Positions 18,060 to 55,416 of a DNA stretch of 64,000 bases are shown here, one piece after another. Within the stretch, counting starts at the first letter, position 1; each line of letters starts with the position of its first letter. The stretch spans positions 4,800,001 to 4,864,000 of the forward strand of contig OZ245817.1 of the NCBI GenBank assembly GCA_965228475.1, read 5' to 3'. The DNA comes from Myxococcota bacterium. GTDB lineage: Bacteria; Myxococcota_A; UBA9160; JAFDDA01. Below the pieces are notes generated by a model, which did not search any database, was not told the DNA's origin, and saw only the letters and a list, made by a program, of their open reading frames with translations. Position numbers and translations under genes: made by a program.

Positions 18060-19297
18060 CTCGGTTCCTCGATCGTGAAGGCCATGCCGGCGTGGGCTTC
18101 GAGCCGAACCAGGAGGGGTTCCGCCATCGCCGAGGTCGGCGTGTGGATCCCGCCGGGCGACGTGAGTTCGTCTTCGGCGAGGCACACGGCGGCCTCACCG
18201 AGCATGCGCGAGGTGGCGCCGTAGCCCGGGTCGCGGTCGCCGGTGACGCGGGCGAACAGGCTCTTCCCGGCGTCGCTCGGGTGTTCACCGAAGAGGCGGA
18301 CGTCGAAGTAGCCCTCTTCGCGCTGCTTCTGGTTCGGACCTTCGCCCGGAGCCGGGAGGAAGCGTCCGAGTACGCCGCGCAGCGGGCCGATCGCCGCCGC
18401 CGCCATCGTGCCGACGACGCCCGCCGAGAGCCCGGCCGCCTTCACCGCGGAGACGGGGCCCGTGCCGAGCAGCGTGGCTTCGTCGTAGCGGAACTCGCGG
18501 CCGTAGGGGAAGCCGAGCAACGCGTTGCTCCTGCGCACGACGCGCTCGTTGATGGCCGCCATCACGAAGGGACCGATCCACTGGCCGAAGTCTTCGTCGA
18601 AGGAGGGCCCGGTGCGGTCGCGGCCGTCGGGGCCGTGGCGCTCGCCTTCCGGGTTCAGGCCGTAGGGGTTCGCGAGGATGCGGCGCACCTTCGGGTCGCG
18701 GCTCGCCTCCTCCATCAGGTTCATCATGCTCGCGATCGTGCCGCCGCTCGCCGCTCCGGAGAAGCCGGCGACCCGGAAGCTCACGCGCGGCGCGACCACG
18801 CCGTGACGCGCGCGCATCTCGCGCTGGAGGAAGTGGACGCCGAGGTCCGAGGGGATGCTGTCGAAGCCGCAGGTATGGACGATCCGTGCGCCGGTCGCGG
18901 CGGCCTCCTTCTCGTGGGCGTCGATCATGCGGCGAATCCACTGGGCTTCACCGGTGAGGTCGCAGTAGTCCGTGCCCTTCGCCGCGCAGGCCGCGACGAG
19001 CTTCGAGCCGTATTGGGCGTAGGGTCCGACGGTCGTGCACACGACGGCGGTCCGCTCGGCGAGCTCCGCGACGAAGGCGTCGTCGTCCGAGTCGCCGACG
19101 ATGAGCGGCAGCGCGGCGGCACCTTCGCCGAGCTCCTTGCGCACGGATTCGAGCTTGGCCTGGTTGCGCCCGCCGATCGCCCAGCGCAGTCCGCCTTCGG
19201 CGCCGTGACGCTCGAGCAGGTGCTCGGCGACGAGCTTGCCGGTGAATCCCGTGGCACCCCAGACGACGACGTCGAGTTCTCGATCCTTGCGATTCAT
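18056..19297 (-). CDS. Saccharopine dehydrogenase-like / trans-acting enoyl reductase oxidoreductase
   Basis: GATGFTG, TTVGPY, YCDLTGE, CGFDSIPSD, SGGT, DPGY. Confidence 0.9.
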   Translation of the reverse strand: MNRKDRELDVVVWGATGFTGKLVAEHLLERHGAEGGLRWAIGGRNQAKLESVRKELGEGAAALPLIVGDSDDDAFVAELAERTAVVCTTVGPYAQYGSKLVAACAAKGTDYCDLTGEAQWIRRMIDAHEKEAAATGARIVHTCGFDSIPSDLGVHFLQREMRARHGVVAPRVSFRVAGFSGAASGGTIASMMNLMEEASRDPKVRRILANPYGLNPEGERHGPDGRDRTGPSFDEDFGQWIGPFVMAAINERVVRRSNALLGFPYGREFRYDEATLLGTGPVSAVKAAGLSAGVVGTMAAAAIGPLRGVLGRFLPAPGEGPNQKQREEGYFDVRLFGEHPSDAGKSLFARVTGDRDPGYGATSRMLGEAAVCLAEDELTSPGGIHTPTSAMAEPLLVRLEAHAGMAFTIEEPS

Positions 19298-19331
19298 TCT
19301 GCCCTCCTCGGGCTTTGCGCGGCCATTCGGC

Positions 19332-20279
19332 CTAGAGCGTGGTGAGCCGGGCGACGATCGCCCGTTCGGCGGTGTGGGCGTCGACGGCGGTGGCCACCGT
19401 GGTCGGCATGCCGATACCGAGGTTCGGATCCACCTCGTGTGTCCGGAGCGTACCTCGTTCGATGGTCGTGACGACCGAGAGCCGTTCGAACGTGAGGGGG
19501 CTCGGGTCGACCAGCGCCCAGACCGTGAGCGGGTCGTGCAGGTAGGCGGCGTTGTCGGGCTCGAGATCGCCCCCGATGCCGGTGAAGAGCCTGTGCTGGA
19601 CGGGCTTCCACAGGCCGATCTGGTGCGCGATCACCCGGGCCAGGGGGCCGGCGGCGGCCATGGCCTCGACGTCGGCGTCGCGCAGCCAGGTCGCGAGGGT
19701 GACGTCGGCGGCCACCAGGGTCGTCTCGAAGCCGGCGCCAAGAACGGCACAGGTCGCCTCGGGGTCGGAGCAGAGGTTGTAGTCGATGCCCGGCTCGCAG
19801 ACGTGCTTCCCGATGGCGACGCGTCGGATGTGCCCGCCCATCACGGTGAGGCGCGCGACGCGCTGCGGAAGCTCCGGGTCGAGCGCCACGGCGCGCGCGA
19901 CATTCGTGAGCGGCCCGATGGCGACGATCTCGAGCCCGGGCGTCTCCTTCGAGAGCCGCACGATCGCCTCGGGCGCGGGCTCGTCGTGGATCGCCGCGTC
20001 GACGGTTCCCGCCGGGACCATCTCGTCCTCGTGCCCGAACCACGAGTACCGGGACTGCGACCGGAGAGCAGGCTGCGTCGGGCCCGCGAAGACCGGAACG
20101 TCCGTGCGCCCCGCGATCCCGAGCAGCCGCGCCGCGATCTCGGCCCGAAGCTTCGTATCACCGGCCACGGTCGTCACGGCGACGAGGTCGAGTTCTTCGG
20201 CGCACGCGAGCACGAGGCCGAGGGCGACGGCGTCGTCGACGTCGCTTCCGATGTCCGTATCGAAGAGGATCTTCTTCAT
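19332..20279 (-). CDS. Nucleoside hydrolase (IU-NH family)
   Basis: DTDIGSDVDD, IGPLTN, VMGG, LHDPL; GAGG RBS before ATG 20279. Confidence 0.9.
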   Translation of the reverse strand: MKKILFDTDIGSDVDDAVALGLVLACAEELDLVAVTTVAGDTKLRAEIAARLLGIAGRTDVPVFAGPTQPALRSQSRYSWFGHEDEMVPAGTVDAAIHDEPAPEAIVRLSKETPGLEIVAIGPLTNVARAVALDPELPQRVARLTVMGGHIRRVAIGKHVCEPGIDYNLCSDPEATCAVLGAGFETTLVAADVTLATWLRDADVEAMAAAGPLARVIAHQIGLWKPVQHRLFTGIGGDLEPDNAAYLHDPLTVWALVDPSPLTFERLSVVTTIERGTLRTHEVDPNLGIGMPTTVATAVDAHTAERAIVARLTTL

Positions 20280-20299
20280 CTGGGGGTTCCTCGGGAGGC

Positions 20300-20427
20300 G
20301 CCGGCGGAGCGCGTCGGTATGGTTCTGGCTCATGGCTCGCCCTGGCGGGCTCCGAGGCGTTTTCAGTATCGGAGTGCGGGCTGCGCTTTACTTCGCCTGA
20401 ACCATACCGACGCGCTCCGCCGGCTAC
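20300..20427. repeat. Fold-back repeat element, copy A
   Basis: Perfect 26-bp inverted repeat (20300-20325 / 20399-20424) enclosing 22-nt and 26-nt blocks identical to copy B at 48979-49103. Confidence 0.9.
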
Positions 20428-22130
20428 GAGTCGGTTTCCGCCACCTTGAGTCGAAGCCGTAGTCCGCCAGCGAGGACGTCGAACTCGTTCGCGGTGATCT
20501 CAGCGACGACGACCTCGCTCTGCCGGCCGGCTTCGAGGACCGTGTAGATCCCCCGCCCGGCGTCGGCGACGTCGAGTGAGAACGTGCGCCCGTCGGCGGC
20601 GATCTCGAATCGGTGCGCTTCGATCTGGCGAAGCTCGATTCGACGGGGATCCGTCTTCGCCTTCTTTTCGGAGACCTCGTAGATCTTCGCGGCCCCGGCG
20701 GCGGTGGACGGTGACCCGGCCCGATGGGCGGCGATCGCCGCCATCGCGTTCGCCAGGCGCACGGCTTCCTCGTCCGCGGACCGCTCGAAGCTTCCGCCCA
20801 TGTGCTCGTCGATGAAGCCCGTGTCGTAGTGCCCCTCGACGAACACCGGATGGTCCATCACCCGCTCGTGGAACGGGATCGAGGTGCGGATCCCCGCAAC
20901 GACATACTCGCCCAGGGCGCGCTTCATGCGGTCGATCGCCTCTCGCCGGTCCCGGCCCGTCGTGACGAGCTTCGCGACCATCGGGTCGTAGAAGACCGTG
21001 ACCGTCGCCCCCTCGAAGACGCCATCGTCGACCCGGACGCCGGGCCCGCCCGGCGGACGGTAGACGCGGATCTCGCCGGGCGAGGGGAAGAAGTTCTTCT
21101 CCGGGTCCTCGGCGTAGATGCGCGCCTCGATCGCGTGGCCGCGAATCCGAACGTCGCCCTGCTCGATCCCGAGCGGCTCGCCGGCCGCCACGCGGATCAT
21201 CGCCTTCACGATGTCGACGCCGGTGATCTCCTCGGTGATGGCGTGTTCGACCTGAACGCGCGTGTTCATCTCGAGGAAGTAGAAGCGCTGGTTCTCGTCG
21301 ACGAGGAACTCGCACGTTCCCGCGCCGTGGTAGTCGACCGCCCGGGCCGCGGCGAGGGCGGCGGCGCCCATCTGCTCGCGAAGCTCCGGCGTCATGCGGT
21401 TCGCCGGCGCTTCTTCGACGAGCTTCTGGTGCCGGCGCTGGATGGAACACTCGCGCTCGCAGAGGTGGATCGCGTGGCCGTGCCGGTCGGCGAGGATCTG
21501 GATCTCGACGTGGCGCGGCCTCTCGATGAACTTCTCGACGTAGATCGCGTCGTCGCTAAAACCGGAGCGGGCTTCGCTGCGTGCGCGCTCGATGGCGCCC
21601 GCGAGCTCGCTCTCCTCGCGCACGAGGCGCATGCCCTTGCCGCCGCCGCCGGCGCTCGCCTTCACCATCACGGGCAGGCCGATCTCCTTCGCGAAGGCGA
21701 GAGCCTCCTCGTCGGTCAGGGCCTCGGTCGTTCCCGGGACGATCGGGACGCCGGCCTGCTCCATCGTGCGGCGGGCGGTGACCTTGTCACCCATGCGCTC
21801 CATCACCTCGGCCTCGGGCCCGATGAAGGTGATGCCAGCGTCCTGGCAGGCGCGCGCGAAGGCGCCGCGCTCCGAGAGGAAGCCGTAGCCGGGGTGGATG
21901 GCCTCCGCGCCGCACGCCTTCGCCACCGCGAGGATCCGTTCGATCGCGAGGTAGGACTCGGCGGCGGGCGGGGGACCCACAGGGTAGGCCTCGTCCGCAA
22001 GCCGGACGTGCAGGGCGTCGCGGTCGGCTTCCGAGTAGACGGCGACGGCCTCGATGCCCATCTCGCGACAGGCCCGGATCACGCGGACGGCGATCTCGCC
22101 GCGGTTCGCGATCAGGATCTTCTTGAACAT
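20424..22130 (-). CDS. accC: Acyl-CoA carboxylase biotin carboxylase subunit (no biotin-carrier domain)
   Basis: MFKKILIANRGEIA, HPGYGFLSE, GGGGKGM, ERECSIQRRHQK, EMNTRVQVEH, YDPMVAK; no MKM motif. Confidence 0.9.
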   Translation of the reverse strand: MFKKILIANRGEIAVRVIRACREMGIEAVAVYSEADRDALHVRLADEAYPVGPPPAAESYLAIERILAVAKACGAEAIHPGYGFLSERGAFARACQDAGITFIGPEAEVMERMGDKVTARRTMEQAGVPIVPGTTEALTDEEALAFAKEIGLPVMVKASAGGGGKGMRLVREESELAGAIERARSEARSGFSDDAIYVEKFIERPRHVEIQILADRHGHAIHLCERECSIQRRHQKLVEEAPANRMTPELREQMGAAALAAARAVDYHGAGTCEFLVDENQRFYFLEMNTRVQVEHAITEEITGVDIVKAMIRVAAGEPLGIEQGDVRIRGHAIEARIYAEDPEKNFFPSPGEIRVYRPPGGPGVRVDDGVFEGATVTVFYDPMVAKLVTTGRDRREAIDRMKRALGEYVVAGIRTSIPFHERVMDHPVFVEGHYDTGFIDEHMGGSFERSADEEAVRLANAMAAIAAHRAGSPSTAAGAAKIYEVSEKKAKTDPRRIELRQIEAHRFEIAADGRTFSLDVADAGRGIYTVLEAGRQSEVVVAEITANEFDVLAGGLRLRLKVAETDS

Positions 22131-22182
22131 GGGAGGGAGGGCTGCATGGACGAAACCCTCAGGATCCAAGAGCCTCGAGAAC

Positions 22183-23472
22183 CTAGAGCGACGCGATGTC
22201 GCGGATCCGGCGCTCCAGGACTTTCCGGTACTCGTCGATGTCGACGGTCTGCCGCGCGACGCCCGAGTCCATCGCCGCCTGGGCGACGGCCGGTGCCACG
22301 TGCAGCAGCACGCGCGAATCGAAGGGCTTCGGGATGATGTAGTTCGGCCCGAAGTGGAAGCGTTCGCCCGGGTAGGCGCGGCGCACGGCGTCCGGGACCT
22401 CGTCCTCCCCGTGCCGGGCCAGCTCGGCCAGCGCGTGCACGGCGGCCTGCTTCATCTCCTCGTTGATCGCGCGCGCGCGCACGTCGAGGGCGCCGCGGAA
22501 GATGAAGGGGAAGCCGAGGACGTTGTTCACCTGGTTCGGGAAGTCCGAGCGGCCCGTCGCCATGATCGCGTCTTCGCGCACGGAGCGGACCTCGTCGGGC
22601 GTGATCTCCGGGTCCGGGTTGGCCATGGCGAAGATGATCGGGTTCGGCGCCATGGCCTTCACCATCTCCGGCGTGACGAGACCGGCCGAGGAGAGGCCGA
22701 CGAAGGCGTCGGCGCCGACCAGCGCCTCCGCAAGGGTGCGCAGCTCGGTCTTGCGGGCGTACCGGGCCTTGTACTCGTTCATGCCCTCGGTGCGGCCTTC
22801 GTAGATCACGCCCCGGCTGTCGACGTGGATCAGGTTCTCGGGCGCGAGCCCGAGGTCGAGCCAGAGCTGCGCGCAGGCCAGCCCCGAGGCGCCGGCGCCG
22901 GAGAAGACGACGCGCGCCTCCTCGAGCTTGCGCCCGGTCACTTCCAGCGCATTCAGGAACGCGGCGGCCGAGATGATGGCCGTGCCGTGCTGATCGTCGT
23001 GGAAGACCGGGATGTCGAGCGTCTCCTGCAGGTGGCGCTCGATGATGAAGCACTCGGGGGAGCGGATGTCCTCGAGGTTGATGCCCCCGAAGGTCTTTGC
23101 CGTGAGCTCGCAGACGCGGATCACGTCTTCCGCGGACTCGCTGTCGACCTCGATGTCGAAGACGTCGATGTCGGCGAAGCGCTTGAAGAGGACGCCCTTG
23201 CCCTCCATCACGGGCTTGCTCGCGGAGGCGCCGATGTTGCCGAGGCCGAGGACCGCCGTGCCGTTGGTGATGCAGGCGACGAGGTTGCCGCGCGCGGTGT
23301 ACCGGAAGACCTGGTCGTCGTCCTTCGCGATCTCGCGGCAGGGCTCGGCGACCCCGGGCGTGTAGGCCAGGGACAGATCGTCCGCCGTCAGGGTCGGCTT
23401 GGTGGGAACCACCTTCACCTTCCCCGGCCGCCCGTCGGCGTGGTACGAAAGCGCCTGATCGCGCGTGCTCAA
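22183..23472 (-). CDS. NAD(P)-dependent malic enzyme (MaeB-type catalytic part, no PTA domain)
   Basis: [44 protein letters not shown] start with AAGGA RBS. Confidence 0.9.
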
Positions 23473-48669: not shown

Positions 48670-48939
48670 ATGACTCGGGTCGAGAGAGAGCCGAGTAGCG
48701 CTTCGAGCTCCCTCGACGCGCTCTTGGAAGAAGTCTATCGGGCGGCGCGCACCCAGCGCGCTCAGCCGAACCTTCCGCTGCGCGAATGGCTCGAGATCGC
48801 CGAGGCGTGGCGCATCGTCGTGGCCCTGCGCGAAGCGAAGGGGAACCGGTCCACGGCGGCTCGCACGCTGGGGATCGGGCGGCGGACGCTCTACTCGAAG
48901 ATGAAGAAGTTGGGGATCAACGCGGACTGGTCGCTGTAG
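48670..48939 (+). CDS. Stand-alone Fis-family helix-turn-helix protein (89 aa)
   Basis: ALREAKGNRSTAARTLGIGRRTLYSKMKKLG. Confidence 0.85.
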   Translation: MTRVEREPSSASSSLDALLEEVYRAARTQRAQPNLPLREWLEIAEAWRIVVALREAKGNRSTAARTLGIGRRTLYSKMKKLGINADWSL

Positions 48940-48978: not shown

Positions 48979-49103
48979 GCGGCTCGGGGCGAGCTGCGTC
49001 TTGGCTCATGGCTCGCCCTGGCGTGCTTCGGTGGACGACTGCCGCTTGGAGAGTGCGGGCTGCGCTTTACTTCGCCAAGACGCAGCTCGCCCCGAGCCGC
49101 TAC
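48979..49103. repeat. Fold-back repeat element, copy B
   Basis: Perfect 27-bp inverted repeat (48979-49005 / 49074-49100) with the same inner blocks as copy A. Confidence 0.9.
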
Positions 49104-55340: not shown

Positions 55341-55416
55341 TGGTGGAGCCGAGCGGGATCGAACCGCCAACCTCCGCGTTGCGAACGCGGCGCTCTCCCA
55401 ATTGAGCTACGGCCCC
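55341..55416 (-). tRNA. tRNA-Ala (anticodon CGC)
   Basis: GGGGCCGTAGCTCAATTGGGAGAGCGCCGCGTTCGCAACGCGGAGGTTGGCGGTTCGATCCCGCTCGGCTCCACCA: cloverleaf, G3:U70, encoded CCA. Confidence 0.97.

Follow-up and report, generated by a model that had tools for sequence, protein, structure and literature searches.

Two fold-back elements in the window (the whole 64,000-nucleotide stretch of DNA analyzed here) belong to a dispersed family of hairpins in which a conserved core is held between paired arms of variable sequence. We consider it probable that this family is a non-autonomous, REP-like single-strand DNA element that is moved in trans by a nuclease or ligase reading the internal loop and upper stem of the hairpin.

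Architecture of the hairpins

Copy A begins with a left arm of 26 bp (20300 to 20325) that is perfectly complementary to its right arm (20399 to 20424), and between the arms lie block A (20326 to 20347), a variable tip (20348 to 20371), and block B (20372 to 20397). Copy B comprises a left arm of 24 bp (48979 to 49002), a core at 49002 to 49076 that is divided into block A (49002 to 49023), the tip (49024 to 49050), and block B (49051 to 49076), and a right arm that ends at 49100 and is followed by a TAC tail (together 49077 to 49103). All of these coordinates refer to the plus strand. Direct comparison confirmed the original prediction that both blocks are letter-identical in the two copies. 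The predicted perfect inverted repeats of 26 to 27 bp also held, with the qualification that three of the 27 contiguous pairs in copy B (48979 to 49005 with 49074 to 49100) are core bases. Folding z-scores of the window copies ranged from −6.8 to −9.2, and 0 of 200 shuffled sequences were equally stable, on both strands and with both RNA and DNA energies.

The two copies differ in their genomic context. Copy A is antisense to both of its flanking genes, which lie outside the element on the minus strand and encode an acetyl-CoA carboxylase biotin carboxylase subunit (20424 to 22130; TIGR00514, above cutoff) and a member of the nucleoside hydrolase family (19332 to 20279; match below the curated cutoffs). 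Copy B lies 40 nt past the stop codon of a co-directional gene that ends at 48939. The trinucleotide TAC directly follows both copies, and on the minus strand of copy A the 5′ foot of the hairpin reads GTAG (20424 to 20427). The last three letters of this foot (20426 to 20424) serve as the TAG stop of the accC-type gene. Searching the whole window against Rfam at the gathering score produced no match to the element, in line with the earlier failure to recognize it as a known RNA family; the single match was a tRNA gene on the minus strand at 55344 to 55416. A search of six element loci at E values of up to 1 gave one unrelated match, located outside the element.

This genome (G000), a single 5.0-Mb contig that is 96% complete, contains 17 copies, of which 16 are complete and one is a half copy. 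The half copy (C1:3992584, locus L017) consists of a left arm and block A after a stop codon and has neither block B nor a right arm, and no partner for it was found. Core copies without arms, which had been named as evidence that would count against the structural model, did not turn up among the complete copies: paired arms of 21 to 29 bp were present in 16 of 16, and the armless metagenome matches that were examined lay within genes and were attributed to chance. In the called arms of these 16 copies, six mismatches were counted, of which four are A.C and none is G.T. Their covariation comprised 106 two-sided changes and no one-sided changes, a result that none of 500 shuffles matched, although such a control can be beaten by kinship among the sequences and the copies of one genome are not independent, so that the counts overstate the support. 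All of these changes were of the Watson-Crick type. As a further control, pairings slid from the named structure were 39 to 52% paired, versus 95% for the named structure itself. The original description of the arms as unrelated between copies was too strong, since the 16 left arms share a mean identity of 51% versus 36.5% for shuffled arms.

Across the family, the invariant sequence is shorter than the two blocks, comprising approximately ATGGCTCG and CTGCGCTT(T/G)A(C/T)TTC, which in copy A correspond to approximately 20332 to 20340 and 20381 to 20394. We refer to the strand that reads ATGGCTCG...CTGCGCTTTACTTC as the core strand, which for copies A and B is the plus strand. The arms are mostly 24 to 32 bp long and about 50% identical between copies, the core ranges from 27 to more than 100 nt, and the total element measures 75 to 190 nt, with a minimal form of 75 nt. 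The tip between the blocks varies from 3 to more than 100 nt and is long in all 16 complete copies of this genome. The GTAG end, which had been proposed as a shared tag, holds for both window copies and fails as a feature of the family: it occurs in 2 of the 16 complete copies (the window copies only), with GGAG in 6 of 16. Among 144 copies the tag was degenerate (GGAG in 36, GTAG in 4), and it was weak in the genome with the most copies (G355).

Distribution, placement, and turnover

Of 61 genomes of the order, 21 (counting the present one) had covariance model matches; at least one of these matches, in G037, had arms without the core and was set aside as an arm-only hairpin. Block B was detected in 23 of 48 genomes of the order, with up to 28 matches each, and in 9 of 253 genomes from the rest of the phylum, with one or two matches each, which did not exceed the reversed control. 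The family thus occupies about half of the genomes of its own order. In a gammaproteobacterial order, 7 of 151 genomes are carriers after removal of matches without block A, and the largest numbers were 62 copies in one assembly (G355) and 41 in a relative. Single block B matches without block A (13 gammaproteobacterial genomes; G054, G239) were discarded. The form with a short tip was absent from 400 other genomes of the phylum of the gammaproteobacterial carriers. A metagenome scan found at least 121 matching stretches, and the family was not found in the viral contigs or in the phage and plasmid collections searched. Its presence is patchy and spans two phyla with nothing found between them, most of the genomes compared being incomplete assemblies.

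A simple in-house gene caller was used to predict neighboring genes. For 87 of 109 copies (78 of 90 in the gammaproteobacterial set), the upstream gene ran in the same direction as the core, and copies between co-directional genes were split 41 to 17 (21 to 8 in that set). The arm mostly starts within about 20 nt of the upstream stop codon. Since the core is usually co-directional with the upstream gene, the strand opposite the core, which we argue below is the one that folds, is in most cases the template strand, although not at copy A. The flanking genes are syntenic housekeeping genes, and no leading- or lagging-strand bias was evident in this genome (7 versus 10 copies, judged by skew). 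Among 32 close pairs of copies, 27 were convergent, 5 were tandem, and none were divergent. Some single loci deserve mention in their own right. Locus L276 (G365:C5:76808-77165) contains three copies in direct tandem with a period of 171 to 172 bp. Within the spacers of several doublets (G000:C1 1389355-1389666 and 4017951-4018254; L163) lies another perfect hairpin, which is flanked on either side by A/T runs and resembles a bidirectional terminator. Copies in two genera (L021, G044:C144; L029, G038:C13) lie behind the same elongation-factor-G-like gene and represent a reused space. A pattern scan found no dif-like site.

A search of orthologous loci for empty sites, suggested with the original prediction, was made against a genome of the same genus (G001), in which 23 of 25 model matches were compared with this genome; the comparison resolved 14 of the 23. 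Seven of the 23 copies lie in spaces that are empty in this genome, and seven lie in six spaces that are occupied in both genomes, a coincidence far above chance (approximately 1e-7 with 1,262 spaces). At the shared spaces, the core is the variant of the respective species, the arms and tips show no greater similarity than at other sites (permutation p of 0.60), and at the copy A space the element is inverted in G001 and in a metagenome contig. These features imply that whole elements have been replaced or reinserted. Flipping of the core between arms that stay bound to the locus was rejected because the arms at the shared sites are unrelated. Contigs aligned across 18500 to 23000 gave no usable junction at copy A. 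Further, one convergent doublet and its spacer occur at two unrelated loci of G001 that are both empty in this genome; the two versions are 83% alike, and homology stops at the arm feet with no evident target duplication, the empty sites of this genome being too diverged from G001 for a clean reading of such duplications. The doublet appears to have moved as a single unit.

In G355, copies with long tips that are 87 to 93% identical have arms that are only about 50% identical, and an 18-nt insert is found at mirror positions in either arm, which indicates that the arms change fast and yet remain paired. Paired change of this kind can arise by template switching, as described in PMC5941160. The 18-nt module itself (L261, L299, L300, L310, L314, L318, and L328) folds into a small hairpin with CTAC and GTAG at its borders, lies at an equal distance from the core in either arm, and is free-standing in L313; it may be a further, very small mobile unit targeting the hairpin family.

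Several of these patterns would also agree with a host-maintained DNA signal at gene ends, in which a hairpin extruded by transcription-driven supercoiling would be read by a host protein and would spread and be homogenized by recombination and conversion without a dedicated transposase. In its favor, the core is near-invariant with free arms, the copies are closely linked to stop codons and the template strand, and gene spaces are reused far more often than by chance; no enzyme was found and no copy was seen in the viral, phage, or plasmid collections, and GNA mini-hairpins, the tip of the short copies described below, are a feature of sites for primase and N4 polymerase (PMC13037366). We nevertheless regard this explanation as unlikely, because carriers have only 2 to 62 copies against thousands of gene ends, roughly half of the order's genomes yielded none, the family recurs in a second phylum across a gap, and the G001 doublet appears to have moved with sharp ends.

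The strand that folds

From the comparison of copies, we conclude that the molecule that folds is likely DNA of the strand opposite the core, on account of both the classes of mismatch and the hairpin tip. Read on the core strand, 144 distinct arms contain 61 A.C versus 13 G.T mismatches and 79 pyrimidine-pyrimidine versus 11 purine-purine mismatches; without the nine core-proximal positions, the corresponding counts are 46 versus 13 and 27 versus 10. On the opposite strand, these A.C and pyrimidine-pyrimidine mismatches become G.T wobbles and purine-purine pairs. Short-tipped copies carry a GNA triloop on the opposite strand in 78 of 85 cases, 46 of the 85 coming from one genome, and an exact GC-GNA-GC tip was present in 69 of 84 such copies at the first count, with N being C, T, A, or G. 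The GNA tip forms the majority in each of nine genomes from both phyla and occurs in three of three copies in two genomes of the family's own order; this evidence comes from relatives, the complete copies of the present genome being long-tipped. In the available text of Kimoto and Hirao (PMC13037366), GNA alone among the 64 GCNNNGC triloops gives a very stable DNA mini-hairpin, and the RNA counterparts measured were far weaker. DNA folding energies favor the opposite strand in 94 of 144 copies. The original prediction had inferred folding of the plus strand from G-T wobbles in the inner stems, and this part is not supported, since the mismatch classes and the GNA tip point to the other strand, even though RNA energies favor the plus strand of the window copies.

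Those RNA energies bear on a second alternative, in which the hairpin would be a 3′ untranslated RNA element whose stem serves as a nuclease-protection or RNase III site and whose core, as mRNA-sense sequence, would bind a protein. In about 80% of copies, the core does read in the mRNA sense of its upstream gene, and RNA energies give preference to the core strand for copies A and B and for 81 of 144 copies overall. However, G.U one-sided changes on the core strand number zero in the 16 copies, the core-strand mismatches are of the A.C and pyrimidine-pyrimidine classes, the short loop reads TNC on that strand, copy A is antisense to both of its neighbors, and gain, loss, and inversion would be left unexplained. 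We therefore consider an RNA element quite improbable as the basis of the family, while a secondary effect of the element on mRNA stability is possible. Of the originally proposed choice between a structured noncoding RNA and a single-stranded DNA element, the dispersed, structured, single-stranded-DNA-type, and probably non-autonomous element is supported, whereas the RNA option is not.

Search for a mobilizing enzyme and proposed mechanism

The GTAG ends had been read as a REP/RAYT signature, and this reading proved weak, given the degeneracy of the tag and the lack of any RAYT associated with the family. The Y1_Tnp model found no Y1 transposase in this genome or in G006, G007, G032, G089, and G097, which have 12 to 21 copies each. 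A search of this genome with NF047646 found no RAYT, and a custom Y1 profile applied to the loci and to all six frames of this genome found nothing. Thirty Y1 loci from the family's own order and 30 RAYT loci from the gammaproteobacterial order had no copy at a distance of up to 1.5 kb, and no copy adjoined the Y1 genes of G001 and G355. The test of RAYT adjacency is able to reveal such links, as RAYTs in two carrier genomes were flanked by GTAG REPs of their own that are unrelated to the family. The proposal that copies might sit beside RAYT/HUH or reverse transcriptase genes found no example apart from L035/L246, where a copy lies close to a Y1 gene but flanks it on a single side and follows a broken transposase gene.

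Among other enzyme classes, Y2_Tnp (the IS91/ISCR type) was detected in 0 of 5 carrier genomes (the control genomes were equally silent) and TnpB in 0 of 5 genomes, IS110 was found in 3 of 5 genomes but not in this one or in G001, and XerC/D-like tyrosine recombinases were present in every genome tested. Among 186 neighboring proteins scanned with Pfam (129 of 225 predicted neighbors, plus 57 of the 63, from 162, without a homologue in this genome), no mobile-element families were identified, and 47 of the 186 matched no family. Clustering of the neighboring proteins returned housekeeping families only. Divergent pairs resembling REPtrons turned out to enclose ordinary genes, and no copy was seen in which a gene separated blocks A and B, as it might in an autonomous form. 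Two other mobile arrangements were encountered along the way: a Y1 transposase gene inside its own long terminal inverted repeats, which is TIRtron-like and unrelated to the family (L270, G355:C32:94594-94935), and three IS110-family copies adjoining an integron-type integrase gene (G013:C1:166106-177214).

A retroposed element, in which RNA of the core strand would be reverse-transcribed to the opposite DNA strand in the manner of retron msDNA and would then fold and integrate, would account for the orientation relative to transcription and for the DNA-type fold of the complementary strand; yet RVT_1 was absent from G000, G001, G089, G355, and G444 (1 of 6 genomes tested was positive), the G001 doublet has no evident target duplication at its ends, and the adjacent reverse transcriptase gene that marks a retron msr-msd locus was not found, so that we regard this route as very improbable. 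It is likewise highly unlikely that the hairpins are ordinary REPs whose cognate RAYT was lost from, or left unassembled in, the genomes examined: REPINs do persist awhile after RAYT loss according to the available text of 10.1101/2021.07.10.451892, a G(G/T)AG-like foot occurs in 43 of 144 copies on the folding strand versus 12 on the other, and most of the genomes are incomplete assemblies, but the same source reports decay after the loss, and the variable positions of block B agree in 61 of 62 matches of G355 and in 15 of 15 of this near-complete genome, and the RAYTs of two carriers have unrelated GTAG REPs of their own.

A single-strand DNA element moved in trans could operate as follows. 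The opposite (usually template) strand, as single-stranded or cruciform DNA, would fold into one long hairpin with a stem of 24 to 30 bp in which the sequence is free and pairing and length are kept; above this stem would come a conserved purine-rich internal loop and then a short imperfect stem, with a d(GC-GNA-GC) mini-hairpin as the tip in the minimal form. A trans-acting single-strand nuclease or ligase would read the core, copy whole elements or convergent doublets, and insert them into spaces directly after stop codons, often reusing the same spaces, and paired changes would let the arms drift, with template switching from arm to arm as the probable route. By analogy, an enzyme of the HUH type would be the likeliest class, as distinct from a recognizable RAYT. 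We infer that the core is recognized by a protein, that the hairpin folds in vivo, and that template switching acts on its arms. More speculatively, and on balance doubtfully, the hairpins may be vertically persistent single-stranded DNA replicators that have crossed two phyla and that depend on an enzyme outside RAYT/IS200, or on a host enzyme, which would read the internal loop and the GNA-capped stem, measure a stem of about 25 bp of free sequence, and insert the element with fixed polarity relative to the template strand after stop codons.

Among small extragenic hairpins, the means of spread and maintenance are settled for RAYT-associated REPs and for no others. The present family retains a near-invariant core in genomes without a detected RAYT, reverses the conserved and free parts relative to REPINs, and bears a clear single-stranded DNA signature. 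Its minimal 75-nt form is a ready bait for isolating a putative binding protein, and an enzyme that reads a short core with any stem sequence would, if it exists, be an interesting single-strand DNA tool.

Comparison with known repeat systems

Integron attC sites follow a stop codon, fold on the bottom strand, have a variable terminal part, and are defined by the RYYYAAC...GTTRRRY consensus. The hairpin family resembles them in its position after stop codons, its bottom-strand fold, and its variable terminal part, but it lacks the RYYYAAC/GTTRRRY ends. An attC scan of this genome found a separate, unrelated array and matched 0 of 17 family copies. The genome contains a canonical chromosomal integron (C1:4362462-4385336), with intI and approximately 35 attC sites of 133 to 134 bp, and two detached attC sites at C1 positions 3912628 and 3917736.

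The family is like REPs and BIMEs, as these are described in the available parts of PMC3733652 and PMC6006769, in that it consists of extragenic GC-rich hairpins just past stop codons, between co-directional or convergent genes, which occur as singles, dimers, and a few tandem arrays in lineage-specific sequence types and have a tag-like tetranucleotide at one foot that is able to provide a TAG stop. It is unlike them in its length (75 to 190 nt, compared with 20 to 40 nt for REPs) and in conserving the internal loop and upper stem while leaving a long basal stem free. The REP definition includes a GT[AG]G tag 0 to 2 nt 5′ of the foot, a short conserved palindrome, and a tnpA-REP gene flanked by the repeat (PMC6006769, accessible text). 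The family shares with REPs its multicopy, extragenic occurrence downstream of coding regions and its inverted dimers; it was found to have neither a short conserved palindrome nor a repeat-flanked tnpA-REP gene, and its tag is mostly GGAG or missing instead of GT[AG]G, with no RAYT association.

As in REPINs (10.1101/2021.07.10.451892; 10.1101/2024.10.14.618302), orthologous spaces hold differing versions in related genomes, and in the one G001 case an inverted doublet and its spacer may have moved as a unit; for REPINs, the available text of 10.1101/2024.10.14.618302 gives mixed types across related genomes at 13 of 20 always-occupied spaces. In those partly available reports, however, REPIN palindromes are conserved and the middle varies, whereas the units described here have variable arms around a conserved core. 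Further, our copies are mostly single and have no RAYT. The short tips have the same closing pairs, GNA loop, free N, and single-strandedness as the d(GCGNAGC) mini-hairpins of single-strand origins and N4 promoters (PMC13037366), but those sites, as far as that partial text describes them, are single and belong to phages and plasmids, whereas the family is chromosomal, repeated, and unseen in the corresponding collections.

The CIR elements of Caulobacter and MITEs are likewise intergenic repeats of about 110 bp with long inverted repeats, but a CIR element folds as two arms connected by a linker with GANTC sites (PMC2229807), a pattern that is absent in the family. MITEs conserve their terminal repeats and generate a target duplication (PMC2229807, in the part available), whereas the arms of the family vary and no duplication was seen at the doublet ends, so the original contrast with MITEs, a conserved core within variable paired arms, is upheld. 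The suggestion of an undescribed family is also supported, in that it was absent from Rfam and from the papers searched; repeat-consensus figures, supplements, and most subscription papers lay outside that search, so a prior description is possible. The hairpin family is apparently undescribed and, in its position, dimers, and turnover, works like REPs, BIMEs, and REPINs while standing outside REP membership.
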